DNA of 64,000 nucleotides from Thermoanaerobaculia bacterium (GTDB lineage: Bacteria > Acidobacteriota > Thermoanaerobaculia > UBA5066 > DATFVB01). Positions 15,334 through 37,682 of the stretch are shown piece by piece (the stretch's first letter is position 1; each line of letters starts with the position of its first letter). Under the pieces are notes generated by a model. It was given only the letters and a program-made list of their open reading frames with translations, was not told where the DNA came from and searched no databases. The stretch lies in assembly GCA_035717485.1 (NCBI GenBank), contig DASTIQ010000315.1, forward strand, positions 471-64,470, in the 5' to 3' direction. Both the position numbers and the translations under genes were made by a program.

Positions 15334-15498
15334 AGTCCGTCGGCCGCGGCAGGGCGGAGTCCCCCGCCGCGGCCCCGGCGAGCCCCCCCGGAAGCCCTTG
15401 CCGGCGCGGGGTCCGGACACGGTGATGGACGCCCCCGGCCCGTTGGCCTGCTCGTGTCGCCGGGATGCCCACCGTGCGGGTTCTGTTAGGATTACGTC

Positions 15499-16161
15499 AT
15501 GCCGTCACCCGTCCGCGAAGCGATCGATCTGCTTTCCAAGAGCGGCGAGGCCGCCTTCGCGATCGACGCGTCCGACCGGCTCGTCTACTGGAACAAGGGA
15601 TGCGAGGAGATCCTCGGCTTCGAGGCCCAGAAGGTCCTGGGAAAGCTCTGCTTCGAGGTCATGGGGGGACGGGACGAGCACGGAAATGTGTATTGTTTCA
15701 AGAACTGCCCCGTCGCCCATCAGGCGCGGCACAACGAGGACGATCCGGTCCAGCCCTTCGTGCTTTCCGTCAAGGACAAGAAGGGCGAGCAGCGGAAGCT
15801 GACCGTTTCGATGTTCGCGGTCCCGGCCGTTCGCCCCTCCCTGTCGGCCGTCGTGCACGTCATCCGGGAAACCGGCGCTCCGGCGTCTCCTCTCGAGAAG
15901 ACGCTCGCGAAGCAGGCCGCCGCGGCGCCCCCGACGCGCTGGCCCCTTCTCACGACCGAGGGACAGCCGGTCGAGCTCACGACGCGCGAAAAGGAGATCC
16001 TCCGCTGCCTGGCCGAGGGCTTCTCGACGTCGGCGATCGCGGAGAAGCTCTTCATCGCCCCGGTGACGGTGCGGAACCACGTCCAGAGCATCCTGCAGAA
16101 GCTCGACGTGCACACGAAGCTGGCCGCGGTCGTGTTCGCCTACCGCCATCAGTTGATTTAG
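15499..16161 (+). CDS. PAS-domain / LuxR-family HTH transcriptional regulator
   Basis: N-terminal PAS-like sensor region. C-terminal LuxR HTH (LTTREKEILRCLAEGFSTSAIAEKLFIAPVTVRNHVQSILQKL). Confidence 0.7.
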   Translation: MPSPVREAIDLLSKSGEAAFAIDASDRLVYWNKGCEEILGFEAQKVLGKLCFEVMGGRDEHGNVYCFKNCPVAHQARHNEDDPVQPFVLSVKDKKGEQRKLTVSMFAVPAVRPSLSAVVHVIRETGAPASPLEKTLAKQAAAAPPTRWPLLTTEGQPVELTTREKEILRCLAEGFSTSAIAEKLFIAPVTVRNHVQSILQKLDVHTKLAAVVFAYRHQLI

Positions 16162-16304
16162 CGGCGCGGCGATACGCCGCGTGATACGGGCCCGTGCGGC
16201 CCGGCGCCGAGTCGTCCGAGCCCGTCTTCCACGACGTCTCGCCGCGCCTCGAACTCGACCCAATCGGCAGGGGGAGCCGGGGTCCGCCGGTCTCCCCGAC
16301 GGCT

Positions 16305-16739
16305 TCAGCGAGCGCGGCGGAGTGCTTTCCTGGGAGCTCTACCGGTCCGTCGCCGCTTCGCCTTCGCGCCGAGCTCGCGGGAGACGAGATCGAGCAGGTC
16401 CGAGACGGTCAGGATGCCGACGAGCTTCCCGTCCGAGACGACCGGGAGCGCGCCGATCTTCCTCCGCCTCATCAGGTAGGCGGCGTCCTCGACCGGCGTC
16501 GCCGGCGCGACGACCGCGACGCCGCGGCTCATCACCTGGTCGATCGTCCGATCGATGCGGAGGTTGCCGACGAGGAGCCCCGCGATGTCGCGGTCCGAGA
16601 CGATCCCGACCACCCGCTCCCCCCGCACCACGACGAGGTGGCGCAGCCGCCGCGCGCGCATCCGTTTCAGGGCCTGCTCCGCGGATCCGTCCTCCCCGAT
16701 CGTCTCGACCTTCCGGTGCATCAGCTGTTCGACTCGCAC
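16305..16739 (-). CDS. CBS domain pair protein
   Basis: 144 aa with two CBS motifs. Confidence 0.6.
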   Translation of the reverse strand: MRVEQLMHRKVETIGEDGSAEQALKRMRARRLRHLVVVRGERVVGIVSDRDIAGLLVGNLRIDRTIDQVMSRGVAVVAPATPVEDAAYLMRRRKIGALPVVSDGKLVGILTVSDLLDLVSRELGAKAKRRRTGRAPRKALRRAR

Positions 16740-16859
16740 GGGCTCCCTCCCCCCTCCACTCTACCCTCCGCGGCCGCTCTTCGAGCGCCGAAATGATGCA
16801 TTTGGAGCAAGACCGGCTCCCGGCCGGGGGACATGATCGGATCGGCAAGGAGGGCGTGC

Positions 16860-17342
16860 ATGCGGGTTCGCGATCTGATGACCACCCACGTCTGGTCCTG
16901 TTCCGAGAACGCGACCGTCGCTTCGGCCGCCAATACGATGCTCGACCACAACTGCGGCTTCGTTCCCGTCGTGGGCAAGGACGGCGACGTCCTCGGCGTC
17001 GTGACCGACCGGGATCTATGCATGGCCCTCGTGCGGAACGACCGGCGCGCCGCCGAGATCCCCCTCGCCGAGGTCTGCTCGGGCCGGGTCGTCTCCTGCC
17101 GGCCCGACCAGGAGATCCACGACGTCCTCCAGATCATGGAGGGCGCGCGGGTCCACCGGCTGCCCGTCGTGGAGGACGGCCGGCTCAAAGGGATCATTTC
17201 GATGACGGACGTGCTCCGGCACGCCTCTCCCGTCCGGAGCGCCGACGGGGACTGTCTCACCTGCGCCGAGGCGGTGGGCGCGCTGAAGATGATCACCGCC
17301 GTCCGCCGGCCCCGGAAGAGCTGGGTCGCCGCGGCGGAATGA
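16860..17342 (+). CDS. CBS domain pair protein
   Basis: Start at MRVRDLMTTHVW, preceded by AAGGAGG. Two CBS motifs. Divergent from the other CBS gene. Confidence 0.6.
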   Translation: MRVRDLMTTHVWSCSENATVASAANTMLDHNCGFVPVVGKDGDVLGVVTDRDLCMALVRNDRRAAEIPLAEVCSGRVVSCRPDQEIHDVLQIMEGARVHRLPVVEDGRLKGIISMTDVLRHASPVRSADGDCLTCAEAVGALKMITAVRRPRKSWVAAAE

Positions 17343-17445
17343 CCGCAGATTGAAGTGTTTGCATCATGCGTCCGCGTGTGACTTTCGCGAGACTGAAAGC
17401 GGCAAAAGGAGCAACGGGCTCATACCGCCGATTCGAGGAGGGCCA

Positions 17446-17742
17446 ATGCAAGACCTCAACCGAACCATCCGCACCCGAGGGCCGGGCGGGGAAACGGCTT
17501 CGCCCGCTCCGATTCTTCCGCCGAGAACCGAATCCATGAAGACGACTTCCCCGGGAGAATGGCTGAGCCGCACCGAAGTGGCGCGGCTGTTCCAGGTTTC
17601 CGCTTCGACCGTCACGCGCTGGGCCCGGGAAGGAAAAGTCCCCGCCAAGCGCACGCCGGGAGGGCACTATCGATATCCGGCGGCCGAGGTTCGCCGACTC
17701 GCCGGGACGTCGGGGCCCGGCGATCTCGTCCGACTCGACTGA
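17446..17742 (+). CDS. Helix-turn-helix DNA-binding protein (excisionase/MerR-like HTH)
   Basis: GAGGAGG Shine-Dalgarno 4 nt before ATG. HTH segment LSRTEVARLFQVSASTVTRWAREGKVP. Sits directly upstream of the cytochrome operon. Confidence 0.5.
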   Translation: MQDLNRTIRTRGPGGETASPAPILPPRTESMKTTSPGEWLSRTEVARLFQVSASTVTRWAREGKVPAKRTPGGHYRYPAAEVRRLAGTSGPGDLVRLD

Positions 17743-17787: not shown

Positions 17788-18084
17788 ATGAAATCGGTTA
17801 CCCGTACCGGGCTCGTCATCGGCGGGCTCTACCTGGCGTCGATCGCTTCCCAGGGAATCGCGTTCGGCAAGGCGTCGTGGGTGAAGGGCGCCAAGGACCT
17901 CGGTATGCCCGCCCAGAACTGTCTCTACTGCCACACCGAGAAGATGCCCAAGAAGGACACCTTCAAGGTGGACGAGCTCAACGATCGCGGCAAGTGGCTC
18001 ATGAGCGAAAAGGACAAGAAGAAGGCTGCCGAGATCGACCTGGCGTGGCTCAAGGAATACCCGGGAGGCCCGGAACAGAAGTAG
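17788..18084 (+). CDS. Small periplasmic monohaem c-type cytochrome
   Basis: AGGAGGAG Shine-Dalgarno. Signal peptide. Single CLYCH haem-binding motif. 98 aa. Confidence 0.65.
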   Translation: MKSVTRTGLVIGGLYLASIASQGIAFGKASWVKGAKDLGMPAQNCLYCHTEKMPKKDTFKVDELNDRGKWLMSEKDKKKAAEIDLAWLKEYPGGPEQK

Positions 18085-18166
18085 TCGTCAGCTGACCACC
18101 GGGGCCGGACGGAGTCCGGCCCCGTTTTCCGTCCATCGGACGGACAAAAAGGCGCGCGGTGAGACC

Positions 18167-20329
18167 ATGAAGAGCTTCAGGATCGTTCTGATCGCGGTGT
18201 GCGCGGCGGCGGGCGTCGCGCTCGGGGCCGAAACGAAAGCCAAGGCGAAACCGCCCGCCGATGCCGATTGTCTCGGCTGCCACTCCGACGCGACGTTGAA
18301 ATCCGCGAAGGGCCGCTCCCTCTTCGTCGCCGCCGCGAAGCTCGCCCGGTCCGTTCACGGAGCCGCGGGTCTTTCCTGCGTGGACTGCCACGCCGGATTC
18401 GACCCCGGAGAGATTCCCCACAAGGCGAAGATCACCCCGGTCGCGTGCGTCGGATGCCACGACGACGTCGCCGCCAAGCACCCGTTCCACCGCGATCTCG
18501 CGGAAGCGAAGAAGGGCGGCGCCGCGCCCGCGGTCGACTGCCAGTCGTGCCACGGCGGACACGGCGTCGTTCCCGTCTCGTCGCGCGCGTTCCTGCTCAA
18601 GAGCGACCCGGCCGCGGGCTGCGGATCGTGCCACGACGACGTCGTCGCCGAATTCCGCTTCTCGGCGCACGGGCGCGCGCTCGCGCGCTCCGTCAAGGGA
18701 GCGCCGGACTGCCTCACGTGCCATCGCCAGGACATGATCGGCTCGATCGGCGTGCCGTATGCGACCCGCAAGATCGCGCAGGAGAAGATGTGCCTCTCCT
18801 GTCATCTCAAGAACCCCGCGATCCGCGCGATGATGCCGAGCGCCGGGTTCATCGAATCCTTCGAGACGAGCGTCCACGGACGCGCGCTCGCGCGCGGAAA
18901 CGGTGCGGCGCCGACCTGCATCGACTGTCACGGAACCCACGGCATGAGCAACCCCCTCTCGCCGGGCTCGAACGTCGGGAAGCTCGAGATTCCGCACCTC
19001 TGCGCGAAGTGCCACAAGACGGAAGCCGCCCAGTACGCCACGAGCGTTCACGGAACCGCGCTCGCTCGCGGGATGAAGGACGCCCCCGTCTGCACCGACT
19101 GCCACGGCGAGCACGCCGTGCTCCCGCGCCGTGATCCGAACTCCCCGATCGCCGCGGCGAACGTCTCGGCGCGCGTCTGCACGCCCTGCCACGGCTCGCT
19201 GCGGCTCGCGCAGAAATTCAACCTGCCCACCGACCGCTCCCGGAGCTACGCGGACAGCTTCCACGGCATGGATTCCCGCGGGGGGGTCGCCTCGGTCGCC
19301 AACTGCGCGAGCTGCCACGGCGCGCACGACATCCTTCCGTCTTCCGATCCGCGCTCGCGCGTCGCCAAGGCGAACCTCGCCTCGACCTGCGGCCAGAACG
19401 GGTGTCACCCGAAGGCGAACGACCGGTTCGCGCTCGGCCGCGTCCACGTCACCGGCACGAGGGACAAGGACCCGCTCCTCTTCGTGATCGCGACGATCTA
19501 CATCGTGCTCATCGCCGGCGTCATCGGCGGGATGCTCGCGCACAACGCGCTCGACTTCCTCCGGAAGCTCCGGCACCGATTCCGGATCCGGATGGGCAAG
19601 GACGTCGAAGCTCCCGCGGGGAACGGCGTCTACCTGCGAATGACGCTCTTCGAGCGGCTCCAGCACGGGGGCGTCGCCCTCCCGTTCATCCTGCTCGTCA
19701 TCACCGGCTTCATGCTCCACTACCCCGACGCCGCCTGGGTGCGGCTCATCCGGCGGATGAACCCGAGGGCGTTCGAGCTCCGGAGCGTCCTCCACCGCGC
19801 GGCGGGCGTCGTGATGACGGTGACGAGCCTCGTCCACGTCGCCTACATCGTCCTCTCCGCGCGCGGCCGCCAGCTCGTCGCGGATCTCTGGCTGCGCCCG
19901 AAGGACCTCACGGACGCCTGGAAGACCCTCAAGTACAACCTCGGTCTCTCGAAAGAGAAGCCGATGTACGGAAGGTTCTCGTACGCCGAAAAGGCGGAGT
20001 ACTGGGCGCTGGTCTGGGGCACGATCGTCATGACGGTCACCGGCGTCGTCATGTGGTTCGACAACACCTTCATCGGACTCCTGACGAAGCTCGGCTACGA
20101 CGTCTCCCGCACGATCCACTTCTACGAGGCGTGGCTCGCGTTCCTCGCGATCGTCGTGTGGCACCTGTATTTCGTGATCTTCAACCCGGACGAGTACCCG
20201 ATGAATCTCGCCTGGCTCACCGGAATGCTCTCCGAGAAGGAAATGGAAGAGGAACACCCGCTCGAGCTCGAGCGGCTTCGCCGTTCCGGACCCGAGCCCG
20301 GCGCCCCCGCACCGGCGCCCCCGGCATGA
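18167..20329 (+). CDS. Multihaem cytochrome c (12 CxxCH plus one CX4CH) fused to a C-terminal dihaem cytochrome b membrane domain (CbcL-like quinol oxidoreductase)
   Basis: Signal peptide. 12 CxxCH motifs plus CGQNGCH. The C-terminal 300 aa have 5 TM helices with conserved His pairs, like HydC/FdnI-type cytochrome b. Confidence 0.8.
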   Translation: MKSFRIVLIAVCAAAGVALGAETKAKAKPPADADCLGCHSDATLKSAKGRSLFVAAAKLARSVHGAAGLSCVDCHAGFDPGEIPHKAKITPVACVGCHDDVAAKHPFHRDLAEAKKGGAAPAVDCQSCHGGHGVVPVSSRAFLLKSDPAAGCGSCHDDVVAEFRFSAHGRALARSVKGAPDCLTCHRQDMIGSIGVPYATRKIAQEKMCLSCHLKNPAIRAMMPSAGFIESFETSVHGRALARGNGAAPTCIDCHGTHGMSNPLSPGSNVGKLEIPHLCAKCHKTEAAQYATSVHGTALARGMKDAPVCTDCHGEHAVLPRRDPNSPIAAANVSARVCTPCHGSLRLAQKFNLPTDRSRSYADSFHGMDSRGGVASVANCASCHGAHDILPSSDPRSRVAKANLASTCGQNGCHPKANDRFALGRVHVTGTRDKDPLLFVIATIYIVLIAGVIGGMLAHNALDFLRKLRHRFRIRMGKDVEAPAGNGVYLRMTLFERLQHGGVALPFILLVITGFMLHYPDAAWVRLIRRMNPRAFELRSVLHRAAGVVMTVTSLVHVAYIVLSARGRQLVADLWLRPKDLTDAWKTLKYNLGLSKEKPMYGRFSYAEKAEYWALVWGTIVMTVTGVVMWFDNTFIGLLTKLGYDVSRTIHFYEAWLAFLAIVVWHLYFVIFNPDEYPMNLAWLTGMLSEKEMEEEHPLELERLRRSGPEPGAPAPAPPA

Positions 20330-23106
20330 TCCGTCCGGCGAGAACGCTCGCGCTCCTGTTCGCGGTCCTGGCGCTCGCCCCCGCGGCCGGGGCCGCGAAC
20401 CCGGCCCCCTCGAAGGACGACTGCCTCGCGTGCCACGAACCGGGCGTCCGCGTCGGGCGGCGGAAAGCCGGCGAGGCCCCGCCGTTCAACGCGGCGGCCC
20501 TGAAATCCTCTCCCCACGCGGACCTCGACTGCGTTTCCTGCCATGCCGACATCAAGGAAGTCCCTCATCCGGACAAGCTCGCGCGCGTGGACTGCGGCTC
20601 CTGCCACTCGGACGAGGGAAAGCAGTATGCGGCGAGCGTGCACGGCCGGAAGAGCGCCGCCGGCGATCTCTACGCCCCGGGCTGCAAGAGCTGCCACGGC
20701 ACGCACGACGTTCTCCGTCCCGGAACGCCCGGTTCGCCGACCTCGACGATGCAGATCCCGCGCCTCTGCGGCGGCTGCCACCGCGAAGGGTCCGCCGTCA
20801 GCCTCACCCGGAAGATCCCGCAGACGAACATCCTCGGCAACTACATGGACAGCATCCACGGCGAAGGTCTCTTCAAGCGCGGGCTGATCGTCGCCGCCGT
20901 CTGCACGAGCTGTCACACGGCGCACTTCGTGCTCCCCCACAACGACCCCCGCTCCTCGATCGCCAAGGAGAACATCGCGAAGACCTGCACGAAGTGCCAC
21001 GCGCAGATCGAGATCGTCCACCGCAAGGTGATCCGGGGCGAGCTCTGGGAGAAGCAGCCGCACCTGATTCCCGCCTGCGTCGACTGCCACTCTCCGCACA
21101 AGATCCGGAAGGTCTTCTACTCGCAGGGAATGGCGGACCAGGACTGCCTGCGCTGCCACGGCGACCCGAACCTGAAGGGAACCCGGGGCGGCGAGACCGT
21201 CTCCATGTTCACGGACGCGAAGGAGCTCGCGCATTCCCGCCACGCGAAGATCGCCTGCGGGCAGTGCCACACCGGCGGCGACCCCTCGAAGACCCGCCCC
21301 TGCCTCACGATCGCGGCGCGCGTCGACTGCTCGATCTGCCACGCCGCCGTCGTCGACCAGTACAAGGAAAGCCGACACGGTCAGCTCTTCGCGCAGGGCA
21401 GCCCCGACGCGCCGTCGTGCCAGGACTGCCACAGTCCGCACGGGACGTTGTCCAAGACCGACCTGAATTCCCCGACGTTCTCGCGGAACGTCCCGGCGCT
21501 GTGCGCGCGCTGCCATCGCGCGGGCGAGAAGGCGGCCGTCCGATACCGGGGCGCCCAGAAGAACATCGTCGAGAACTATCTCGAGAGCATCCACGGCAAG
21601 GGCCTCATGGAGTCGGGGCTCACGGTCACCGCCAACTGCGCCGACTGCCACAGCGCGCACCGCGAGCTGCCGTCGGCCGACCCCCGGTCGACCGTGAATC
21701 GCGCCAACGTCGCCCTGACCTGCGCAAAGTGCCACCGCGGGATCTACGAGCTCTTCAACGCGAGCGTCCATTCGACGGCCGTGACCCGGACGAACAAGAC
21801 GCTTCCGGTCTGCAGCGACTGCCACTCGGCTCACAGCATCCAGCGGACGGACCTCTCGAACTTCCGCCTCCACATCATGGACCAGTGCGGCCGATGCCAC
21901 GAGAAGATCGCGGCGACGTACTTCGACACGTTCCACGGAAAGGTCTCGAAGCTCGGGTATCTCGCGACCGCCAAGTGCTACGACTGCCACGGGTCGCACG
22001 ACATCCTTCCCGTGACCGATCCCCGCTCGCGCCTCTCCCGCGCCAACATCGTCAAGACGTGCGGGAAGTGCCACAGCGGTTCGCACCGCCAGTTCGCCGG
22101 ATATCTCACGCACGCGACGCACCACGACCCGAAGCGCTACCCCTTCCTCTTCTACACGTTCTGGGGGATGACGTTCCTCCTCGTCGGAACGCTCACGTTC
22201 GCCGGCACCCACACCGCGCTCTGGCTCCGCCGCTCGCTCGCCGACGGAAAGGCCCCCGCCGCGGCCGAGGCCCAGGCCGACCGCGTCTACGTCCGCCGCT
22301 TCACGACGTTCCAGCGGAACCTGCACCTGATGGTGATCGGCAGTTTCCTCGGGCTCGCGGCGACCGGCATGACGCTGAAGTTCTCCTACGCGCCGTGGGC
22401 GCGCGTCCTCGCGCGGCTCTTCGGCGGATTCGTCGCGGCCGGCCTGATCCACCGCTTCTGCGCGGTCGTGACCTTCACCTATTTCGGGCTCCACCTCTGG
22501 GACCTCGTCCGCCAGAAGCGGAAGAGCGGGAAGAGCTGGATCCGGCTCGTCTTCGGTCCGGACAGCATGATGCTCAACCGCCGCGACTGGCGCGAGTTCG
22601 TCGGATCGATCAAGTGGTTCCTGAAGAAGGGGCCGCGGCCCCGCTACGGGCGCTGGACCTACTGGGAGAAGTTCGACTACTTCGCGGTGTTCTGGGGCGT
22701 GGCCGTGATCGGCATGACCGGCCTGATCCTCTGGTTCCCGACCGTCTTCACGCGAGTGCTGCCCGGGTGGATGGTGAACGTGGCGACGACGATCCACAGC
22801 GACGAGGCGCTGCTCGCCGTGTGCTTCATCTTCAGCATCCATTTCTTCAACACCCACTTCCGTCCGGAGAAGTTCCCGATCGACACCGTGATCTTCACGA
22901 CGGGAGTTCCGCTCGAGGAGCTCAAGCACGACCGGCCGCTCGAGTACCGGCAGCTTCGCGAGAGCGGAGAGCTCGAGCGCCTGAAGATGCCGGCGCCGAT
23001 CCCGCTGGCGAACCGGATGTGGCGCCGTTTCGGCTTCACCGCGCTCGCGATCGGGCTCGTGCTGATCGGGCTGATCCTGTATTCGATGCTCTTCCTCTAT
23101 CGGTGA
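20326..23106 (+). CDS. Second multihaem cytochrome c (19 CxxCH) fused to a dihaem cytochrome b membrane domain (CbcL-like paralogue)
   Basis: ATGA overlap with the previous gene. Signal peptide MIRPARTLALLFAVLALAPAAGA. 19 CxxCH motifs. C-terminal multi-TM domain with His ligands. The upstream part of ORF 19402 is an artefact. Confidence 0.8.
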   Translation: MIRPARTLALLFAVLALAPAAGAANPAPSKDDCLACHEPGVRVGRRKAGEAPPFNAAALKSSPHADLDCVSCHADIKEVPHPDKLARVDCGSCHSDEGKQYAASVHGRKSAAGDLYAPGCKSCHGTHDVLRPGTPGSPTSTMQIPRLCGGCHREGSAVSLTRKIPQTNILGNYMDSIHGEGLFKRGLIVAAVCTSCHTAHFVLPHNDPRSSIAKENIAKTCTKCHAQIEIVHRKVIRGELWEKQPHLIPACVDCHSPHKIRKVFYSQGMADQDCLRCHGDPNLKGTRGGETVSMFTDAKELAHSRHAKIACGQCHTGGDPSKTRPCLTIAARVDCSICHAAVVDQYKESRHGQLFAQGSPDAPSCQDCHSPHGTLSKTDLNSPTFSRNVPALCARCHRAGEKAAVRYRGAQKNIVENYLESIHGKGLMESGLTVTANCADCHSAHRELPSADPRSTVNRANVALTCAKCHRGIYELFNASVHSTAVTRTNKTLPVCSDCHSAHSIQRTDLSNFRLHIMDQCGRCHEKIAATYFDTFHGKVSKLGYLATAKCYDCHGSHDILPVTDPRSRLSRANIVKTCGKCHSGSHRQFAGYLTHATHHDPKRYPFLFYTFWGMTFLLVGTLTFAGTHTALWLRRSLADGKAPAAAEAQADRVYVRRFTTFQRNLHLMVIGSFLGLAATGMTLKFSYAPWARVLARLFGGFVAAGLIHRFCAVVTFTYFGLHLWDLVRQKRKSGKSWIRLVFGPDSMMLNRRDWREFVGSIKWFLKKGPRPRYGRWTYWEKFDYFAVFWGVAVIGMTGLILWFPTVFTRVLPGWMVNVATTIHSDEALLAVCFIFSIHFFNTHFRPEKFPIDTVIFTTGVPLEELKHDRPLEYRQLRESGELERLKMPAPIPLANRMWRRFGFTALAIGLVLIGLILYSMLFLYR

Positions 23107-23179
23107 CCGGAGCGAGGAATAAAATCGACCATCGCCCGCCGAGGACGCGGGCCGAACGACAGAAAGGGGACCGGCGGGA

Positions 23180-24622
23180 ATGAAGGATTTCGCGAAGAAC
23201 TGGCTGCGCCCGATCGTCTATCTGGGGCAGAACCCCATGAGCATCCTCGGCGCGGTCCTCACGACGAGTTCGGCGCTGACTCTCGCCGGCTTCTGGGTGT
23301 TCGAGATCCTGCAGACACGACCGCTGCCCCCCTACGCGGGGATCGTCCTCTACCTCGTCCTTCCCGGCATCTTCGTGATCGGCCTCGTCCTGATGCCGGT
23401 CGGCGCGCTCTGGCAGCGCCGCAGCCTCAAGCGCGCCGGGAAGCTTCCCCACGAGTATCCGCGGATCGACCTGCGGCACCCCGTGCTCCGGCGCGCGGCC
23501 GTGCTCGTCGCGATCGCCACCGGGTTGAACGTGATGATTCTCGGAACCGCTTCCTACCTCGGCGTGGAGTACATGGACTCGGTGCAGTTCTGCGGACAGA
23601 GCTGCCACACGGTGATGGCCCCGGAATACACCGCCTACAAGGATTCCCCCCACTCCCGCGTCGCCTGCGTCGAGTGCCACATCGGAGCGGGAGCGCCGTG
23701 GTTCGTGCGCTCCAAGATCTCCGGCGTGCGGCAGGTCTTCGCGGTGGCGTTGAAGACGTACTCGACGCCGATCCCGTCTCCGGTCCAGCACTTGCGGCCG
23801 GCGCGCGAGACGTGCGAGCGCTGCCACTGGCCGCAGCGGTTCGTCGGCGACAAGCTGCTCGTCCGTCCGAAGTTCGCCGACGACGCCGCGAACACGAAGT
23901 CGTACGACGTCCTCGTGATGAAGATCGGGGGCCACACCTGGCAGGGGGCCGTCGGAATCCACGGCCGGCACCTCGCCCAGGCGTCGCGCGTGTCGTATGT
24001 CTCGACGGACGCGCACCGGCAGGTGATCCCCGTCGTCCGCTACACCGACGATTCCGGCAAGACGATCGAGTACGTCTCGACGGACGTCAAGACGACTCCC
24101 GAGCAGCTGCAGCGCGGCGAGAAGCGGACGATGGACTGCATGGACTGCCACAACCGGCCCTCCCACACGTTTCAGATACCCGAGAAGGCCGTCGACCAGG
24201 CGATGGCGGCCGGTCGGATCAGTCCGGAGCTCCCGTTCGTCAAGAAAGAGACCGTCGCGCTCCTGAAGACCCCGTATGCGGACCGGGATGCGGCGTCGGC
24301 GGCGATCGGCGAAAAGATGGCGGAGTTCTATCGGACGTCCTATCCGGACGTCTTCCGGACGCATCGCGCGCAGATCGAGGCGGCCGCCGACGAAGCGCGG
24401 CAGATCTATCTGCGGAACGTCTTCCCCGCGATGAAGATCGGATGGGGCACCTACCCGAACAATCTCGGGCACGAGGACTTCCTCGGCTGCTTCCGCTGCC
24501 ACGACGGCAGCCACCAGTCGAAGGACGGGAAGGTCATCACCCAGGACTGCGACGCGTGCCACGCCCTGCTGGCGCAGGACGAATCGAACCCGAAGATCCT
24601 CGCCGAGCTCGGGATGAAATGA
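23180..24622 (+). CDS. Membrane-anchored multihaem cytochrome c, NapC/NirT-family, ImcH-like (6 CxxCH, 3 N-terminal TM helices)
   Basis: Three N-terminal hydrophobic helices, then a periplasmic domain with CGQSCH, CVECH, CERCH, CMDCH, CFRCH and CDACH. Confidence 0.75.
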   Translation: MKDFAKNWLRPIVYLGQNPMSILGAVLTTSSALTLAGFWVFEILQTRPLPPYAGIVLYLVLPGIFVIGLVLMPVGALWQRRSLKRAGKLPHEYPRIDLRHPVLRRAAVLVAIATGLNVMILGTASYLGVEYMDSVQFCGQSCHTVMAPEYTAYKDSPHSRVACVECHIGAGAPWFVRSKISGVRQVFAVALKTYSTPIPSPVQHLRPARETCERCHWPQRFVGDKLLVRPKFADDAANTKSYDVLVMKIGGHTWQGAVGIHGRHLAQASRVSYVSTDAHRQVIPVVRYTDDSGKTIEYVSTDVKTTPEQLQRGEKRTMDCMDCHNRPSHTFQIPEKAVDQAMAAGRISPELPFVKKETVALLKTPYADRDAASAAIGEKMAEFYRTSYPDVFRTHRAQIEAAADEARQIYLRNVFPAMKIGWGTYPNNLGHEDFLGCFRCHDGSHQSKDGKVITQDCDACHALLAQDESNPKILAELGMK

Positions 24623-24656: not shown

Positions 24657-27197
24657 GTGAGCGCGACGGCCGGGGAGCGGCCGAGCGGCCTCTCCAGCGC
24701 GCGCGCCCGGGAGCTCCTCGCCGAACACGGGCCCAACCGGTACGTCCCGGCGGGCCGCACCGCCTCGTTCGCCGAATTCCTCCGCACGCTCGCCGACCCG
24801 ATGGCGATCATGCTGCTCGCCGCGGCGATCCTCTCCTTCGCGGCGGGACAGCGGCGGGACGGAATCGTGCTCCTGGTGGCCCTCTTCCCGGTGCTCGCGG
24901 TCGACGTCGTCCTCGAGGCGAGGTCGCGGCAGGCGCTGAAGAAGCTCGCGCAGGCGGTTTCCCCGCGTGCCACCGTCGTCCGCGACGGCGTGCCGGCCGA
25001 GATCCCGACCGAGGAGATCGTGCCCGGCGACATCCTCGTGATCCGCGAGGGAGACGTTCTGCACGCCGACGGGACCGTCGCGTGGTCCGCGCACCTGGCG
25101 ATCGACGAGTCCATGCTGACCGGCGAGTCGGAGCCGAAGGACAAGATCGCCGGCACGCCGTTCTACGCCGGCTCGCGCGTGCTCACCGGTCAGGGCGGGG
25201 GCGAAGTGGCCTCGACCGGCCTCCGGACGCAGTACGGCCGGATCGCCTCGCTCGTCGCGGAAGCGCCCGCGGGGCAGACGCCGATCCAGGAGAAGACCGC
25301 GAAGGTCGTCTCCATCCTCGGGAAAGTCGCGCTCGTCGTCGCGGCCGCGGTCTTCGGCCTCGCGTGGCTCCGGGAACGGTCGCTGGCGCGCGCCTTCGTG
25401 TCGGCGATCAGCGTCGCGATGTCGGCGATGCCCGAGGAGTTCCCGCTCGTGTTCACGCTGTTCCTCTCGCTCGGGGCCTGGCGCCTCTCGAAGCATCGCG
25501 TCCTCGTCCGGCGGCTCGCGAGCGTCGAGACGCTGGGGTCGACGACGGTGATCTGCACGGACAAGACCGGGACGCTGACGCTCGGGCAGTTCGTCCTCGA
25601 AGCGGTGCTCCCGTTCGGCGACTTCACGGAGGCCGATCTCCTGGAATCCGCCGTCCTCGCCTGCGAGATCGACCCCTCCGACCCGCTGGATCAGACGATC
25701 CTCGAATCCGCGCGCGCCGCCGGACTCGACCCGGGGCGGCTCCATTCGGGCGGGCGCCTCGTCCGCGACCATTCGTGGGACGCCCTCGGCAAGCACATGT
25801 CGCACGTGTGGAGAACGGAAGACGCGGCGGCGGGCACCCTCGTCGTCGCGGCGAAAGGCGCCCTCGAGGGGATCCTCGAGCACTGCGCGCTGACGCCCGG
25901 GCGCCGGGCCGAAGCCGAAGCGCGTCACGCGGAGCTCGCGGCGGGAGGGCTGCGCCTCCTCGCGGTCGCCGGAAAAACGCAGCGGGAGGGGTCCGAGGAC
26001 CGCGCGAGCGACGAATCGAACCTCGCGCTCGTCGGCTTCCTCGGCTTCCGGGATCCCCTCCGGCCGGAGATCGCGGCCGCGGTCGCGGACTGCCGCACCG
26101 CCGGAATCGCGATCAAGCTCGTGACCGGCGACCATCCGGTCACGGCGCAGGCGATCGCCGAGAGCGCCGGCATCGTCACGGGACGCGAGCCGATCGCGAC
26201 CGGCGACGAGCTCGCGGCGCTCTCTCCCCCCGATTTCGCGCGGCGCGTCGCGGAATCGCCGATCCTCGCCCGCATCCTCCCCGAACAGAAGTACGCGATC
26301 GTCGACGCGCTCCGCGCCGGCGGAGAAGTCGTCGCGATGGCCGGCGACGGCATCAACGACGCTCCGGCTCTCCGCCGCGCGTCGATCGGGATCAGCATGG
26401 GCGCCCGGGCCACGGAGGTGGCGCGCGCCGCGGCCGATCTCGTCCTTCTCGACGACAATTTCGGCTCGATCGTCCAGACGATCCGGGAGGGCCGGCGGAT
26501 CTACGACAACCTCGAGAAGGCGTTCCGGTACCTGCTCGCCTTTCACGTGCCGATCGTCCTTCTCGCGGTGGTCGTTCCCCTCCTGGGGTTCCCGCTCCTC
26601 CTCCTTCCGGTCCACCTCGTCTGGCTCGAGCTCGTCGTGCACCCCGTTTCCGCCCTGCTGTTCGAAGGAGAGCCGGCGGATCCCGACGTCATGCGGCGCC
26701 CGCCCCGGCCGCCCGGATCGTCTCTGCTCGGGAAGCGTTCGGTCCGGAGCTCCGTCGCGACCGGCGCCCTGCTCGCGGCCGCGGTGCTCGCGATCTACGC
26801 CGCGGCGGTGTCGAAGGGAGAAGACGCGGCACGGGGCTTCGCGCTCGCGGCGCTCATACCGGGGACGCTCCTGATCGCCTGGGCGGAGCGCGCCGGAGAT
26901 CGTCCCTGGCGGCGCGTTCCGGCGCCGAACACCGGCCGGTTCTGGGGGATCATGGCGCCGATCGCGGTCTCGCTCCCCCTTCTCGTCGCCTGGCCGACCG
27001 CCTCGCAGATTCTCCACGCCACGTTTCCGTCCTCCGGGCAGTGGGCGATCGCGCTCGCGGCGGCAACCGCGGCGGTCGCCTGGCGCGCGTTCGGCACCGG
27101 GGAAGAAAGGCGAAAACTCCCCGTCTCGCCGGACTTCTCCGCCGATCGAAATGCCGCCGGCGCCGCCGGACGGCGGCCCGGTGCGCCCCCGCTCTGA
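24657..27197 (+). CDS. P-type cation-transporting ATPase (P2/Ca-Mg type)
   Basis: DKTGTLT phosphorylation motif, TGES, GDGINDAPAL hinge, 8-10 TM helices. 846 aa. GTG start. Confidence 0.85.
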   Translation: MSATAGERPSGLSSARARELLAEHGPNRYVPAGRTASFAEFLRTLADPMAIMLLAAAILSFAAGQRRDGIVLLVALFPVLAVDVVLEARSRQALKKLAQAVSPRATVVRDGVPAEIPTEEIVPGDILVIREGDVLHADGTVAWSAHLAIDESMLTGESEPKDKIAGTPFYAGSRVLTGQGGGEVASTGLRTQYGRIASLVAEAPAGQTPIQEKTAKVVSILGKVALVVAAAVFGLAWLRERSLARAFVSAISVAMSAMPEEFPLVFTLFLSLGAWRLSKHRVLVRRLASVETLGSTTVICTDKTGTLTLGQFVLEAVLPFGDFTEADLLESAVLACEIDPSDPLDQTILESARAAGLDPGRLHSGGRLVRDHSWDALGKHMSHVWRTEDAAAGTLVVAAKGALEGILEHCALTPGRRAEAEARHAELAAGGLRLLAVAGKTQREGSEDRASDESNLALVGFLGFRDPLRPEIAAAVADCRTAGIAIKLVTGDHPVTAQAIAESAGIVTGREPIATGDELAALSPPDFARRVAESPILARILPEQKYAIVDALRAGGEVVAMAGDGINDAPALRRASIGISMGARATEVARAAADLVLLDDNFGSIVQTIREGRRIYDNLEKAFRYLLAFHVPIVLLAVVVPLLGFPLLLLPVHLVWLELVVHPVSALLFEGEPADPDVMRRPPRPPGSSLLGKRSVRSSVATGALLAAAVLAIYAAAVSKGEDAARGFALAALIPGTLLIAWAERAGDRPWRRVPAPNTGRFWGIMAPIAVSLPLLVAWPTASQILHATFPSSGQWAIALAAATAAVAWRAFGTGEERRKLPVSPDFSADRNAAGAAGRRPGAPPL

Positions 27198-32497: not shown

Positions 32498-34447
32498 TCA
32501 GTTGTGCCAGCGGATGTAGACGCCGTACCGATTCGCGTCGTAGTTCGCGAGCGATCCGGCGAGCGTCGCCTTTTCCTCGTACTTGTCCCGGTTCCACTCC
32601 CCGATGAGCGAAAAATTCTTCGCCACGTCGACGGCGGCGCGAACGGCCGCGCGATCGATCGTGAAGGGGAAAGAACCCTCGTTCTCGAAGCGGCCGACGG
32701 CGCCATCGATCGACACCGGCGCGAAGATCAGGGTCAGCCCGCCGTCGAACGACCGGCCGTTCTCGCGGTGGAACGACGTGTCGATCGAGAAGTCCTCGGG
32801 ATGCCGGAAGAGGATCCGGCTGTCGGATTCGTACTTCTCGGCGGAAACTCGCAGGCGCAGGAACTTCGCCGGAGAGCCCTCCGCCTCGCCGCCGTACTGG
32901 CGGATCCTGGCGTCGTATCCGATCCCCGTGCGGTCGTTCGAGGCATCGATCTGCTCGCCGGTCAGGCTCAGGCGGAAGACGTCCTTGAGCGCCCAGGCGG
33001 CGCGGAGACGGTATCGGTCACGGTCCAGGAAGTCGGTGCGGACGACGGGATCGTCGGCACGGTCGCGACGCCAGTCGGCGCCGAGAGTCAGGCCGCTCGC
33101 GGTGAATTTCGCCCCGAGATCGAATCCGTTGATCCGCCGGTCGAAGGAACCGTCCTGCGCGCCGGGAACGACGATCTCTTCCGGCCCTTCGACGACGGTC
33201 ACGCGCTGCTTGTTCTGGGAGCCGCCGGCGAAGACCGAGAGCCCTCCGAACGCCCGCGCATCGACCCGCGCGTCGAAGATCTCGTCCGTGCGCTCGACCG
33301 AGGTCTTCGCCTCGATCGTCTGGAGGAGATCGCGCGGATCGAGACCCGCAAACGTCACCGTCTGGAGATACAGATCCGAAATCAGCGCGAATCCGTCGAG
33401 CTCCTGGTGATTCTTCGACCAACCCGCGGAGAGGTCGATCCCGTCGGCGAGATTCGCCTCGACGCGGCCGCTCCCCCGCCATGCCGTGTTCTCGGCGCGC
33501 GAGGAGATCGTGTCGGTCAGGCCGGCGAAGATCCGGCTGATCCCGAAGGAGACGAGGTTCCCCGCGAAGTCCTCGCGCTCCGTGACGTCGGCTTCCGCGG
33601 CCGCGCGCACGTACGAGCCGATGAGCTTCACGCGACTGCCCAGGCGCGCCGCGACGGCGGCGTTCGTGATCGGCGTGTTCGCGTCGTTCTTGGTCGTGCG
33701 ATGGAAGTTGTCGAGCGACACGGGAACGCCCAGCACCGTTCCGGAGCCGTTGCCGGCCCCCGCTCCCGGCACGAGGTCCTGGGTCTCGACCTCGTGGAGC
33801 TTTCGCCAGCCCTGGGTGACCTGGCCGGTGACGGGACCCGCGTCGAATGCGGCGCCCCCGTAGATCTCCTGATCGTCCTCGTCGAGGTTCTGGGTGAGCC
33901 GGAACTCGTCGCCGCCGGCGGAGTACGTCGTCCGGCCGGGCCCCTCGTAACGGTTGTAGACGTAGCCGACGATCGGCGTGATCCAGTAGCCGGGAAGGAA
34001 GCGCAGCTCGACTCCCAGGATGTTCCGGGTGCGGTCGTACGTGTGCTCGCCGGGAGTGATCCCTTCGGAGATCAGCGGGTTGGCGAACGCCGGAAGCGCG
34101 GAGAACATCTCCGTCCGCCGGTAGTTGAGCCGCAGGTCGTACTTGCCGGCGAGGCCCGCCTGCAGGCGGAACGATCCCGCCGGTCCGGCGCCCAGGTCGT
34201 TCGCGTCGAGGCGGAACTGGTCGAAGAGTCCCGCGCCCGCGGGACCGCCGGCGGACAGGCTCAGGGCGCGGAGGAGGAAACCCTCGCGCTCGTTGATCTG
34301 GCTCCGGTACATGTCTTCGTTCCCGCTGACGTCGAGGAACCGGTATCCGAGCTCGACGTCCACCGGGACGGCGGGGGGATCGGCCGCCAGGACGGCGCTC
34401 GAAGCGCCGGCGGCGATCAGGGCGATGACGAGGCGGAGCTTCTTCAT
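32498..34447 (-). CDS. Outer-membrane beta-barrel porin, MtrB/PioB/MtoB-like
   Basis: Signal peptide MKKLRLVIALIAAGASSAVLAA. 649 aa with alternating beta-strand pattern, rich in Gly/Asp/Arg/aromatic residues. Immediately downstream of the decahaem gene with an 11-nt gap. Confidence 0.6.
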   Translation of the reverse strand: MKKLRLVIALIAAGASSAVLAADPPAVPVDVELGYRFLDVSGNEDMYRSQINEREGFLLRALSLSAGGPAGAGLFDQFRLDANDLGAGPAGSFRLQAGLAGKYDLRLNYRRTEMFSALPAFANPLISEGITPGEHTYDRTRNILGVELRFLPGYWITPIVGYVYNRYEGPGRTTYSAGGDEFRLTQNLDEDDQEIYGGAAFDAGPVTGQVTQGWRKLHEVETQDLVPGAGAGNGSGTVLGVPVSLDNFHRTTKNDANTPITNAAVAARLGSRVKLIGSYVRAAAEADVTEREDFAGNLVSFGISRIFAGLTDTISSRAENTAWRGSGRVEANLADGIDLSAGWSKNHQELDGFALISDLYLQTVTFAGLDPRDLLQTIEAKTSVERTDEIFDARVDARAFGGLSVFAGGSQNKQRVTVVEGPEEIVVPGAQDGSFDRRINGFDLGAKFTASGLTLGADWRRDRADDPVVRTDFLDRDRYRLRAAWALKDVFRLSLTGEQIDASNDRTGIGYDARIRQYGGEAEGSPAKFLRLRVSAEKYESDSRILFRHPEDFSIDTSFHRENGRSFDGGLTLIFAPVSIDGAVGRFENEGSFPFTIDRAAVRAAVDVAKNFSLIGEWNRDKYEEKATLAGSLANYDANRYGVYIRWHN

Positions 34448-34457
34448 CGCGTCCTCC

Positions 34458-35369
34458 CTACTTCAAAAGCGTCGGCGAACGGTTCGAACCGTGGATCGCC
34501 GTGTGACAGACCGTGCAGTTCTGGTATCGCGGCAGGAGGATGTTGTGAAAGGAAGGCGGCTGCGAGCCGAGGGTTCCCGCGGCGATCGGCGAGTGGCATT
34601 CGAGGCAGAGCTGGGAGACCTGGGCGCGCTTGAGCTGCTTCGGATTCGACGAGCCGTGCGCCTCGTGGCAGCTCAGGCAGTTGCCGGCGACCCCGGACAC
34701 GTGCTCGAAGACGAAGGGCCCCTTCTTCTCGGCGTGACAGGAGAGACACGGGAGCTCGTCGGCCCGGGTGAATCGCAGCGCGGAGTCGCGCGGGAGCCCG
34801 TGCGGATCGTGGCAGGAAGCGCAGTCCATCCCTGCCTGGAGCCGGTGCGCGAACGGCTTGTCGCGGAATCCCGCCGCCTTCCCGGGATGGCACGACTCGC
34901 AGAGCGCGACCGAATCCATCACGAGGAGATGCGGCCGCGCCGGGGCGGCGTGGATCGAGTGGCAGCTCAGGCAGTTGACCGTCGCCGAGTTGCCGTGGAC
35001 GCCGTTCCGGAACGAGGCGTGATCGGAAGGATGGTCGTGACAGGTCAGGCAGAACTCGGCGCCGGTCCGGCCGTGCAGCTTGCGCTCGACCGGCTTCTCC
35101 CCGGAGGACTCGACGTGCGCCGACGTGTCGCCGTGGCAGCTCGAGCAGACCGCATCCCCCGACACGCGAGCGCGACCCGCCAGGAATGGAATCCGTGCGT
35201 GGGGATTGCGGGAGAAGTCCTTCGCCTGATCGTGGCAGTCCGCGCACGCGGCGACGGCGCTCTTTTCGGAAGGGGGCGCCGCGGGCGGGGAAGCCTGCGC
35301 GGCGGCGAGGGCGGCCGCGCCGAAGATGACCGCGGCCATCGCCGCGCGAAGTCCGAGCGTGATCTTCAT
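34458..35369 (-). CDS. Periplasmic decahaem c-type cytochrome, MtrA/MtoA/PioA-like
   Basis: 303 aa, signal peptide, exactly 10 CxxCH motifs. Same size and haem density as MtrA. Confidence 0.8.
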   Translation of the reverse strand: MKITLGLRAAMAAVIFGAAALAAAQASPPAAPPSEKSAVAACADCHDQAKDFSRNPHARIPFLAGRARVSGDAVCSSCHGDTSAHVESSGEKPVERKLHGRTGAEFCLTCHDHPSDHASFRNGVHGNSATVNCLSCHSIHAAPARPHLLVMDSVALCESCHPGKAAGFRDKPFAHRLQAGMDCASCHDPHGLPRDSALRFTRADELPCLSCHAEKKGPFVFEHVSGVAGNCLSCHEAHGSSNPKQLKRAQVSQLCLECHSPIAAGTLGSQPPSFHNILLPRYQNCTVCHTAIHGSNRSPTLLK

Positions 35370-35469: not shown

Positions 35470-37557
35470 TCACCGCGCGTGCACCTTGTCGACCGAGAAG
35501 TCATCCTCAGGAGCGTGGCAGGCGGCGCAGGCTTCGCCGAACGGCGCCGTCATCACGTACGCATGCGCCGCGGCTTCCTGCGTGTCGTGGCAGCCGAGGC
35601 AGGCCGCCGCCGTCGTCTGTTGCGGCGTGTACCACTCCAGTGGTGGAGGAGGAGTCTGGACCGGGAGGTTCGTGGTCGGCAGCGGGAGCTCCTGGGAACC
35701 GTTGACATGGCATTTGGCGCAGTCCCGCAGATCTCCCGGGAACAGCACTTCCCGGAAATTTTTCTCGGAGACGATGAAATCGCGGGTCAGGTTTTCGCCG
35801 CGGTGAATCCGGTGGATGAAGCGCTGGAAGCTGATCGACTGCGGCACCGGATCCGCGCCGTCGTTCTTATTCGGATTGTGGCAGATCACGCATTCCTCCG
35901 GGGTCCGCCGCTGGGTGCCGTGGAACGCGATCTGGTCGTGGCAGACGTTGCAGTTCGCGAGCGACACGACGGTCCGACGCGGGACCGGCGCGGGGTCGGT
36001 CACGGCGAAATCCAGGATCGGGTTCAGCGCGGATTCGTCCTGCTCGATGTCCGCGCCGCCGTCCCCACGGTGGAGCGTGATCGACCGCCGGGTATCGACC
36101 GAAAGGCGCCAGGTTCCCGCCGCGTCGGCGGGGATCGCGTTCGTGAACGTGTAGGTCGCGTTCGTGCCGTCGAAGACGAGCGCCGCCGTTCCTGCGCCGT
36201 TCGGTTCCTGAATGTAGGTCCCGATGTCGGTCGTCGGGCCTCCGATGAGGAACCGGCAGCGTGCGAGCGTGTTCGGGTCGACCGGCGTGCCGTCGCCGTT
36301 GGTGACCTGGAACGTGACGACCGGCTTCTCGCCCGGAGCCGTGTGCGCGATCGACAGGATCTTCGCGTTCAGACCCGGGAGCTGGGTGGACTTCGTCGGA
36401 TTCGTGTGCGCGCCCAGGATCGACGCGTCGAACTCCGTGTCTCCCTGCGGAACGTGGCACGACGCGCAGGCGCCGTCATCGACGGCGATCCCGCCCGGAT
36501 GGTTCTCACCGGTCGCGAAATTCACGTTGTCGTGGCAGGAGCCGCACGCCGCCTGGCTCGGATACGTGTAGTAATTCGTCGCCTGAGTGGCCGGCGCCGC
36601 ATGACACTTCGTGCAATTCCGCACGTCCTGGGGGAACACGACGGTCGAGAAATCGGAGACGCCATGGCTGTTGATGATCTGGTACGGCGTGCCCGCCGCG
36701 ACGCTCGGCAGGTCTGCGCCCCGGTGGATCTTGTGGATCAGGACCTTGAAATCGACGGTGTTTCCGGTGTCGGGGTTGACGCTCTGCGGCGAATGGCACA
36801 GAACGCAGAGCTTCACGTCCTGGCGCGAGCCGCCGTGGGCGGAGAGCGGGTTGTGGCAGTTGTTGCAGGCGGCCGTGTCGATCATGTCCCACTTGTCGAC
36901 GACGGCCTGGGTGTCAGGACGGAAATCGAATTCGGCGTTGGCGTAGTAGTTCTTGTCGAAGACGTTGGGGTCGACCGCGATGAGGTTCCGGGTCGCGTAG
37001 ATGCCGAGCGTCGTGGTCTTTGTCCCGTCGTAGCTCGCCGGGAGAACCGTCTTGAACGTATAGGTCGAATGCCCGAGCGAAAGGTCGTTGAACCCCGCCA
37101 GTCCGGCGCCGTCGGCGCCCGCCTGCGTGACGGTCTGCTGAATCGGGCTCGTCGGAAGCGACGTGGCCTGCCGGGTCGTGTAGGAGGTGTACTGCCTCTG
37201 GACGGGGTCCCACCAGGCGAGCACGAAGCTCATGCTGAGCGCCCCCGGCGTGACCTTTCCAAGCCGGTCGAGCGGCTGGCCGGCATCGTCGTAGTACGTG
37301 ACGTCGGCGACCACCTTGCGGTCCGAACCGATCGTGACGCTGTTGATGGCGATGTGGAATCCGGGCCGGATGTACCCGAACTGGTCCGTCGTGAGGTAAT
37401 GCTCCTTCGCGCTGGCCGCGTACGCGCTCGGGCTCGTGAGAGTGACCGGCCGCGACGAGATCGCCGCCGGCGCCCCTCGATCCCCGACGCCGCCGAACGG
37501 GACGACGATTCCGGCAGCTGACATTCCCAAAACGACGAGGCGCCTGAGGATCTGCAT
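35470..37557 (-). CDS. Decahaem c-type cytochrome with MtrC/OmcA-like four-domain layout
   Basis: 695 aa, signal peptide, 10 CxxCH in two pentahaem blocks. The blocks are separated by non-haem domains of about 150-220 aa, like MtrC domains I-IV. Confidence 0.65.
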   Translation of the reverse strand: MQILRRLVVLGMSAAGIVVPFGGVGDRGAPAAISSRPVTLTSPSAYAASAKEHYLTTDQFGYIRPGFHIAINSVTIGSDRKVVADVTYYDDAGQPLDRLGKVTPGALSMSFVLAWWDPVQRQYTSYTTRQATSLPTSPIQQTVTQAGADGAGLAGFNDLSLGHSTYTFKTVLPASYDGTKTTTLGIYATRNLIAVDPNVFDKNYYANAEFDFRPDTQAVVDKWDMIDTAACNNCHNPLSAHGGSRQDVKLCVLCHSPQSVNPDTGNTVDFKVLIHKIHRGADLPSVAAGTPYQIINSHGVSDFSTVVFPQDVRNCTKCHAAPATQATNYYTYPSQAACGSCHDNVNFATGENHPGGIAVDDGACASCHVPQGDTEFDASILGAHTNPTKSTQLPGLNAKILSIAHTAPGEKPVVTFQVTNGDGTPVDPNTLARCRFLIGGPTTDIGTYIQEPNGAGTAALVFDGTNATYTFTNAIPADAAGTWRLSVDTRRSITLHRGDGGADIEQDESALNPILDFAVTDPAPVPRRTVVSLANCNVCHDQIAFHGTQRRTPEECVICHNPNKNDGADPVPQSISFQRFIHRIHRGENLTRDFIVSEKNFREVLFPGDLRDCAKCHVNGSQELPLPTTNLPVQTPPPPLEWYTPQQTTAAACLGCHDTQEAAAHAYVMTAPFGEACAACHAPEDDFSVDKVHAR

Positions 37558-37682
37558 TTCATACCTCCCGGATATGTGGCCATTCTAGGCACGCCGACCC
37601 AGTGCTCCGTTTGATGAAAACGAATCAAATTGTTCGGGCGGCGCATTCTTCGCGGCTCGATCGACGGACGTAAGATCCGCGC

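Follow-up and report, generated by a model that had tools for sequence, protein, structure and literature searches.

Two CbcL-family cytochromes and a six-haem ImcH encoded side by side in a Thermoanaerobaculia genome: a probable inner-membrane stage of extracellular electron transfer

What does a bacterium do with three different membrane-bound multihaem cytochromes encoded one after another? The question is raised by a gene cluster at positions 17788-24622 of a 64,000-nucleotide stretch from a soil bacterium of the Thermoanaerobaculia (Acidobacteriota), assembly GCA_035717485.1 (contig DASTIQ010000315.1, positions 471 to 64,470), which is referred to below, at its full length, as the window. 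The answer favoured here, with a probability of about three in four, is that the cluster encodes the entry stage, in the inner membrane, of a chain for extracellular electron transfer and supplies it with three separate menaquinol dehydrogenases, one of them an ImcH protein and the other two members of the CbcL family.

The cluster consists of four reading frames on one strand, called g1 to g4 here in order, whose third codon positions are as rich in G+C as is expected of genuine genes in this window (69% G+C). g1 (17788..18084, plus strand) encodes a 98-amino-acid monohaem c-type cytochrome with the haem motif CLYCH and an N-terminal hydrophobic segment, either a signal or an anchor. g2 (18167..20329, plus) encodes 720 amino acids with 12 CXXCH motifs, one CGQNGCH, and a five-helix FdnI-type dihaem cytochrome b, while g3 (20326..23106, plus) encodes 926 amino acids with 19 CXXCH motifs and a six-helix domain of the same type. 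The ATG of g3 overlaps the stop codon of g2 in an ATGA at 20326-20329. g4 (23180..24622, plus) encodes a 480-amino-acid member of the ImcH family with three transmembrane helices, a CGQSCH (CX3CH) motif, and five CXXCH motifs. Coordinates, lengths, overlap, and haem counts (13 for g2, 19 for g3, and six for g4) are all as claimed in a preliminary description of this DNA. Could so many motifs arise by chance? When the residues of g2, g3, and g4 are shuffled, CXXCH appears a mean of 0.01-0.1 times and at most 2 times, compared with 12, 19, and 5 in the actual proteins. The three proteins are also identical, and of the same lengths, to NCBI entries HET9796035.1, HET9796036.1, and HET9796037.1 from a Thermoanaerobaculia metagenome-assembled genome, where g2 and g3 are named "cytochrome c3 family protein" and g4 is named "NapC/NirT family cytochrome c." As the structure of g2 to g4, the shuffles, and these entries agree, the observation itself is confirmed.

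By every sequence test applied for that family, g4 is ImcH, in a six-haem form. Comparisons with Geobacter sulfurreducens ImcH (GSU3259) and CbcL (GSU0274) were made through their published motif and helix coordinates, and the sequence alignments used the CbcL and ImcH of one Geopsychrobacteraceae genome. Like GSU3259, g4 begins with three transmembrane helices (hydropathy peaks at about 22-44, 54-72, and 106-124, beside helices at 13-35, 45-67, and 100-122), and its CX3CH follows helix 3 directly, an atypical haem motif that is set out as an ImcH feature in PMC6295460. The haem motifs of g4, the CX3CH at 138-143 and CXXCH at 163, 212, 320, 437, and 457, are the first six of GSU3259 (132, the CX3CH, then 156, 205, 311, 428, and 448) shifted by +6 to +9. 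ImcH proteins carry five to nine CXXCH in addition to the CX3CH, and g4 has five. The seventh motif of the Geobacter proteins, at 486, is missing since g4 ends at residue 480. This shorter form has already been catalogued in Geothrix fermentans, Anaeromyxobacter, and Geopsychrobacter, and the six-haem Geothrix homologue has its motifs at 134, 158, 207, 316, 433, and 453 (for both proteins, see the published ImcH homologue table, Table S3).

The unusual surroundings of the first haem are retained as well. The haem-1 pocket of GSU3259 is proposed to be built from Q179 as the distal ligand together with K173, Y188, and an acidic helix-3 residue, E127, and the equivalents in g4, each offset by +6, are Q185, K179, Y194, and D133. 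Across 82 homologues of g4, C138, C142, and H143 are invariant, K179 is conserved in 100%, Q185 in 99%, and Y194 in 84% (another 12% have F), and the residue at 133 is acidic throughout. The NapC/NirT-like region that g4 shares with GSU3259 scores 39.5 bits against Pfam Cytochrom_NNT (PF03264; cut-off, 24.1) over residues 108-197, and NrfH is found both as an NCBIfam model (E, 1.7e-13) and as a PDB sequence (2j7a_C; E, 2.3e-5). Identity to the ImcH of the Geopsychrobacteraceae genome is 43.5%, inside the range of 31.5-49% reported between the Geobacter group and other homologues. The closest homologues thus lie in the expected families rather than among nitrite or hydroxylamine reductases, a point that applies equally to g3, described below.

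What kind of proteins are g2 and g3? Both carry a signal peptide, an N-terminal c domain, and a membrane domain at the C terminus. The latter contains four histidines that align with His18, His57, His155, and His169 of FdnI, its haem ligands in the 1KQF structure. In g2, the matching residues are H500, H543, H651, and H666, and in g3, H667, H709, H824, and H839. The membrane domains of 51 relatives from related loci were aligned, and the four columns are 98-100% histidine. A profile of these domains finds FdnI with an E value of 5e-17. The HydC/FdnI type put forward in the preliminary description therefore holds, and neither of the two findings that it named as grounds for refutation, loss of the four ligands or closest homologues among periplasmic nitrite or hydroxylamine reductases, was made. 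Further conserved histidines occur in the linker helix (helix 0) and in helix 2, the same helices in which additional conserved histidines have been reported for CbcL.

FdnI, the gamma subunit of Escherichia coli formate dehydrogenase-N (1KQF chain C), has the same four-helix dihaem fold. In g2 and g3, this fold is fused to the chain of c haems through one extra helix, and g3 has a further helix at its C terminus. Five-helix domains had been described for both proteins; five is the number in g2 (segments near 437, 501, 545, 613, and 654), but six are seen in an AlphaFold model of g3 (606-640, 661-685, 702-734, 779-803, 814-844, and 893-924). That model covers residues 595-926 with a predicted local distance difference test (pLDDT) score of 79.4. 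The full-length model, at 52.8, was not used, and the structural search was run with the membrane-domain model alone. Foldseek returned FdnI (1kqf_C) as the sole significant match in the PDB, with an E value of 5.5e-5 and a target-normalised TM-score of 0.79. Pfam gives a divided result in that g2 reaches 64.3 bits against Ni_hydr_CYTB and g3 only 21.5, below the gathering score of 30.1; b-domain hits were also obtained with NCBIfam. FdnI itself takes electrons from FdnGH and passes them to quinone, whereas the b domains of g2 and g3 probably run in the opposite direction.

With respect to GSU0274, both proteins share the fusion of a c domain to an FdnI-type b domain, the extra histidines, and the lack of accessory subunits. 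They are nevertheless members of the CbcL family rather than CbcL orthologues. The CbcL/MtrH/MtoC family ranges from 3 to 23 haems, but CbcL in the narrow sense, an orthologue group of the Desulfuromonadales, has nine haems, about 615 amino acids, and at least 57% identity within the group, and both g3 (37% identical to the Geopsychrobacteraceae CbcL, 19 haems) and g2 (27%, 13 haems) fall outside it in identity and haem number. How did g3 come by its 19 haems, compared with nine in CbcL? Residues 328-921 align with residues 25-614 of the 621-amino-acid, nine-haem Geopsychrobacteraceae CbcL (37% identity over 628 residues; E, 1.5e-123), which is encoded beside ImcH in that genome, and residues 59-278 repeat residues 301-525 with 39% identity (E, 3e-49). 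So g3 consists of a CbcL core and, N-terminal to it, a haem module that arose by internal duplication. Its six-helix membrane domain and helix spacing resemble those of GSU0274. Its motif spacing and six helices are almost the same as those of the catalogued 19-haem class of CbcL/MtrH/MtoC homologues (Zhong and Shi 2018; for example, the 931-amino-acid WP_105502606.1 of Solibacteraceae SbA3), of which it is a member with no notable difference. Over 120 clusters in the database share 70% identity or more with g3, and no experimental study of the class was found in the literature searched. A recent lateral transfer of g3, suggested by identities of 82-87% in relatives whose ImcH is only 66-76% identical, was rejected because the whole 19-haem family is conserved to this degree. 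The N-terminal haem modules of g2 (32-187; E, 1e-4) and g3 (31-169; E, 1e-7) have their best PDB sequence match in 28pb_A, a 278-amino-acid chain labelled "Cytochrome c"; this chain and NrfH were the only ones returned by PDB sequence searches of the cluster proteins.

g2 is a different matter. It is only 29% identical to g3 and 27% identical to the Geopsychrobacteraceae CbcL (over 587 amino acids), and a neighbour-joining tree of the membrane domains has two deep clades: one with g3, Desulfuromonadales CbcL, and many versions split into c and b parts, and the other with g2 and its relatives, in which 11-13 haems go with five helices and the C-terminal helix is lacking. The two proteins are therefore old paralogues brought together and not products of a recent local duplication. 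A few five-helix members are listed in the CbcL/MtrH/MtoC family (PMC6295460), and no entry of about 720 amino acids with 13 motifs and five helices was found in the 2018 catalogue; the g2 type is a separate, deep, uncatalogued sister clade of CbcL. The unusual CX4CH site of g2 (CGQNGCH, residue 408), already pointed out in the preliminary description, aligns with an ordinary CXXCH in g3 and most g2-type proteins. Its two-residue insertion is common only to the two closest relatives, and the inserted residues differ in each, so the site is a real variant specific to this clade.

Could g2 or g3 instead correspond to CbcBA, a quinol oxidase of G. sulfurreducens that combines multihaem c and dihaem b parts? 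CbcB is reported to have no sequence homology to CbcL and to have three histidines, with the fourth supplied by CbcA, while g2 and g3 have the histidine pattern of FdnI and CbcL and hence are not CbcBA. An origin of g2 as a CbcB-CbcA fusion was rejected for the same reason, as it aligns with FdnI and CbcL. The resemblance to CbcBA is one of layout and is seen in the split forms beside imcH in Vicinamibacterales. Split g3-type genes are often found beside imcH (L026-L045 in Vicinamibacterales and other Acidobacteriota, L007, and L008, as loci are numbered here); the c subunit has 9-19 haems and retains the linker helix, and the b subunit, of 280-330 amino acids, has a gene of its own. These forms look real in many genomes. 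In locus L003 the g3 homologue also looks split, but this may be a frameshift in the assembly, as part of it lies in a third, overlapping reading frame.

Is the proximity of these genes peculiar to this bacterium? A scan of species-representative genomes yielded 450 ImcH relatives, and the best 80 were examined with 10-kb flanks. Linkage was counted in the 51 ImcH loci whose flanks reach 5 kb or more on each side. In 33 of these 51, a gene for a CbcL-type membrane domain lies within 10 kb, and in 30 it is directly adjacent, so the arrangement, with the two as neighbours in about 60% of the loci, is not the rarity for which it had been taken. Lineages differ in how many CbcL-type genes accompany ImcH, the number being none, one, or two. 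The full trio of g2-type, g3-type, and ImcH genes occurs in other Acidobacteriota (L003, L005, L008, and, at a contig end, L007), in a Phycisphaerae genome (L050, Planctomycetota), and in a Gemmatimonadetes genome (L076, Gemmatimonadota). Gene order within the trio varies, though in L005, where ImcH is 76% identical, it is the same as in the window, down to the P-type ATPase gene described below. In G. sulfurreducens, by comparison, the locus tags of cbcL and imcH are far apart, suggesting that the genes are not neighbours. Literature searches found no paper on a cbcL-imcH neighbourhood or on these genes in Thermoanaerobaculia. PMC6295460 nevertheless tabulates cbcL and imcH genes with adjacent tags, such as A2X79_01190 and A2X79_01185, which went without comment in the papers searched.

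If electrons do leave the inner membrane through these proteins, where could they go? A plausible destination is encoded 8 kb downstream on the opposite strand, where three genes stand in the order of the Shewanella MtrCAB genes. The gene at 35470..37560 (minus strand) encodes an OmcA/MtrC-family decahaem cytochrome with 10 CXXCH motifs (432 bits against NCBIfam TIGR03507, cut-off 209; 176 bits against Pfam MtrC-MtrF_II-IV), a probable outer-surface terminal reductase. The next, at 34458..35369 (minus), encodes an MtrA/DmsE-like periplasmic decahaem cytochrome, also with 10 CXXCH, that scores 187 bits against TIGR03508, just under the cut-off of 192.2. In the position of MtrB, at 32498..34447 (minus), is a gene for a large secreted protein and putative outer-membrane barrel (649 amino acids, a signal peptide, no cysteine, and 10.8% glycine). 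In L001, L003, and L005, it is always next to the decahaem pair. The partners of the trio here are ImcH and CbcL-type dehydrogenases and not CymA as in Shewanella. A 2018 survey stated that it had met with mtrAB nowhere beside imcH. In L003, the mtr-like trio (1590-6700) forms one unbroken stretch with imcH, three g1-like genes, and one gene each of the g2 and g3 types. In the same locus, genes for a Rieske protein, a cytochrome b, and a 9-CXXCH cytochrome come directly after the g3-like genes (14857-17682), which suggests that this gene island holds a further quinol-oxidising complex. In the window, genes for a GGDEF diguanylate cyclase and a CBS-domain protein adjoin the MtrC-like gene (37674-39079).

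The family of the small cytochrome g1, of about 95 amino acids, comprises only 89 clusters in a database of 5.8 billion protein sequences and has no Pfam or NCBIfam match. Within it, C45, C48, and H49 are invariant along with a set of lysines (K36, K55, K56, K69, K75, and K89). The family alignment contains neither a conserved methionine nor a second conserved histidine, so the distal haem ligand may be lysine, tyrosine, or absent. g1 is probably a periplasmic electron carrier. In L003, g1-like genes are present as three tandem copies.

Do the four genes form one operon, as initially proposed? They are adjacent and on the same strand and may be co-transcribed. A strong GC-rich hairpin resembling a terminator or attenuator follows g1 (18100..18124, plus strand), with an 11-bp stem that has 10 G-C pairs and is followed by TTTT; the folding energy of the spacer between g1 and g2 is -41.6 kcal/mol. 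GC-rich hairpins are also found after g1 in L001 (9923-10000) and L005 (4931-5030), with a different sequence in each genome. They may terminate or attenuate transcription or stabilise the mRNA, and so separate g1 from the genes downstream. At the other end, a gene for a cation-translocating P-type ATPase (24657..27197, plus; Pfam E1-E2_ATPase, and below the equivalog cut-offs of the NCBIfam type II/III P-type ATPases) begins 34 bp past g4 and may be co-transcribed with it. Given the hairpin and the ATPase gene, the limits of a four-gene operon are not established. A sigma-70 promoter scan found no promoter, and an Rfam search of the window found two tRNAs only, both away from the cluster. After the ATPase gene come two copies of a 129-nucleotide direct repeat (27205-27333 and 27381-27509) that are 98% identical, lie 176 nucleotides apart, and each contain a 31-nucleotide imperfect palindrome; the window holds no further copies.

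Possible regulators of the cluster lie upstream. A small helix-turn-helix (HTH) DNA-binding protein of the BldC/MerR/excisionase type (17560..17742, plus) matches Pfam HTH_17 with 46.9 bits, MerR, and the NCBIfam BldC family with 68.5 bits (cut-off, 77), and its gene is conserved directly upstream of g1 in L001, L002, and L005. A gene for a PAS-LuxR regulator (15499-16161) is likewise conserved upstream of g1 in syntenic relatives. Around the region upstream of g1 are two more CBS-domain genes (16305-17342).

How would the proposed entry stage work? The analysis establishes gene structure, family membership, ligand conservation, fold, and the recurrence of the neighbourhood, while the direction of electron flow, the quinol sites, the division of labour by potential, the part played by g1, and co-transcription are inferred. 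Published mechanistic models contrast CbcL with ImcH (bioRxiv 10.1101/2022.08.31.506072 and 10.1101/2023.05.03.539133). By analogy with NrfH and ImcH, g4 would oxidise quinol at the periplasmic face of the membrane, at a site beside its first haem (the CX3CH haem, with Gln as distal ligand), and would pass the electrons along its six c haems. In g2 and g3, the two b haems would be stacked across the membrane as in FdnI, and a quinol site near the cytoplasmic face would feed electrons to the 13 or 19 c haems. The protons of the quinol would then be released on the cytoplasmic side, so the g2 and g3 routes would conserve less energy but could run at a lower acceptor potential. From all three proteins, electrons would move on to periplasmic carriers, with g1 as a candidate, and then to the MtrCAB-like proteins. 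In G. sulfurreducens, ImcH is required for acceptors above about -0.1 V and CbcL for those below about -0.1 V, CbcL being switched off at high potential. It is plausible, again by analogy, that g2, g3, and g4 cover different potential windows. The idea of a potential-tuned set, raised in the preliminary description, is an extrapolation from these G. sulfurreducens genetics.

Several points weigh against an entry stage of this kind. The source organism is known only as a metagenome-assembled genome. The putative barrel has no family match, MtrB models included, and is recognised by its composition and gene position. The hairpin after g1 may uncouple this gene from the others. In OY970224.1 (L001/L004, 9626-11443), a locus that is syntenic on both sides and encodes an 80% identical ImcH, g2, g3, and the ATPase gene are missing and imcH directly follows g1, so g2 and g3 are dispensable for that lineage. 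Finally, proteins of the CbcL/MtoC family are also present in Fe(II) oxidisers (PMC6295460), and for this reason the sequence does not fix the direction of electron flow. Might the CbcL-type proteins run the other way and reduce quinone? Electrons drawn from a partner, from Fe(II), or from reduced humics would then enter through the Mtr-type proteins and the long chains of c haems, and menaquinone would be reduced at the cytoplasmic-side site, with a proton motive force generated by an FdnI-like redox loop. MtoC of Fe(II) oxidisers belongs to the family, the two directions cannot be told apart by any sequence feature (PMC6295460), and the b domain has the fold and ligands of FdnI, itself a quinone reductase. 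Yet the genes adjoin that of ImcH, so far found only in Fe(III) reducers, g3 clusters with Desulfuromonadales CbcL, and the number and spacing of motifs in g2 and g3 are unlike those of the nine-to-ten-haem MtoC/MtrH entries of about 660 amino acids in the published table. Reverse operation, the main rival reading, is considered unlikely.

Less likely still is that the three proteins are general hubs that, like CymA and NrfH, deliver electrons from quinol to soluble periplasmic reductases encoded elsewhere, with no relation to extracellular acceptors. The NapC/NirT/NrfH homology of g4 would fit such a role, and CymA serves many reductases in Shewanella. The 64-kb window, though, contains no nrfA, nap, tor, dms, or similar gene, nor does the catalytic subunit of a reductase or dehydrogenase lie near the cluster. 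Apart from the cluster, multihaem proteins are encoded in the window only by the MtrC/OmcA-family and MtrA-like genes, whose counterparts in L003 are contiguous with the cluster. A more serious challenge concerns the division of labour. The family assignments would stand and the potential-tuned set would be wrong if the three dehydrogenases were redundant or differed in quinone type or partner rather than in potential window. This is the most probable of the alternatives, while still the less probable view. Nothing in the sequence reports a midpoint potential, the close relative OY970224.1 manages with ImcH alone, and the number of CbcL-type genes that accompany ImcH varies, from none to two, among lineages. 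What speaks for separate roles is the potential-based separation of ImcH and CbcL in G. sulfurreducens (PMC5322298), as well as the retention of g2-type and g3-type genes with ImcH in three phyla despite reshuffled gene order, which argues for non-redundancy. One further speculation, a tentative one that is somewhat less probable than redundancy, is that g2-type proteins are a functionally distinct fourth class of quinol dehydrogenase for extracellular respiration. ImcH, g3-type, and g2-type proteins would then make up a portable, three-tier, potential-graded module that has spread over three phyla or more and, in Acidobacteriota, feeds MtrCAB-like proteins instead of porin-cytochrome complexes of the Geobacter type.

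Taken as an entry stage for extracellular electron transfer, how much of this cluster is new? The preliminary description identified the proteins correctly, but the novelty is lower than it assumed. ImcH and the 19-haem CbcL class, like their occurrence together, have either been published already or are widespread in public genomes, and the cluster itself would not surprise a specialist, the arrangement being common outside Geobacter. What is added is modest: an example from the Thermoanaerobaculia, the uncatalogued g2-type clade, the recurring trio, and the link to Mtr-type genes.

Overall, the interest of the locus lies in what it implies for bacteria beyond Geobacter, the only genus in which ImcH and CbcL, which mark extracellular respiration in metagenomes better than any other sequences, have been studied. 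The window and the 80 related loci show that in soil Acidobacteriota, as in several other phyla, genes of the two families usually stand together, often with two different CbcL-type proteins and at least sometimes beside genes for Mtr-type outer-membrane proteins. This provides a defined gene set for asking whether haem number and the type of membrane domain set the redox window of a quinol dehydrogenase. The names that these proteins carry in public annotation, moreover, suggest that a common metal-respiration module is hidden in abundant soil bacteria.

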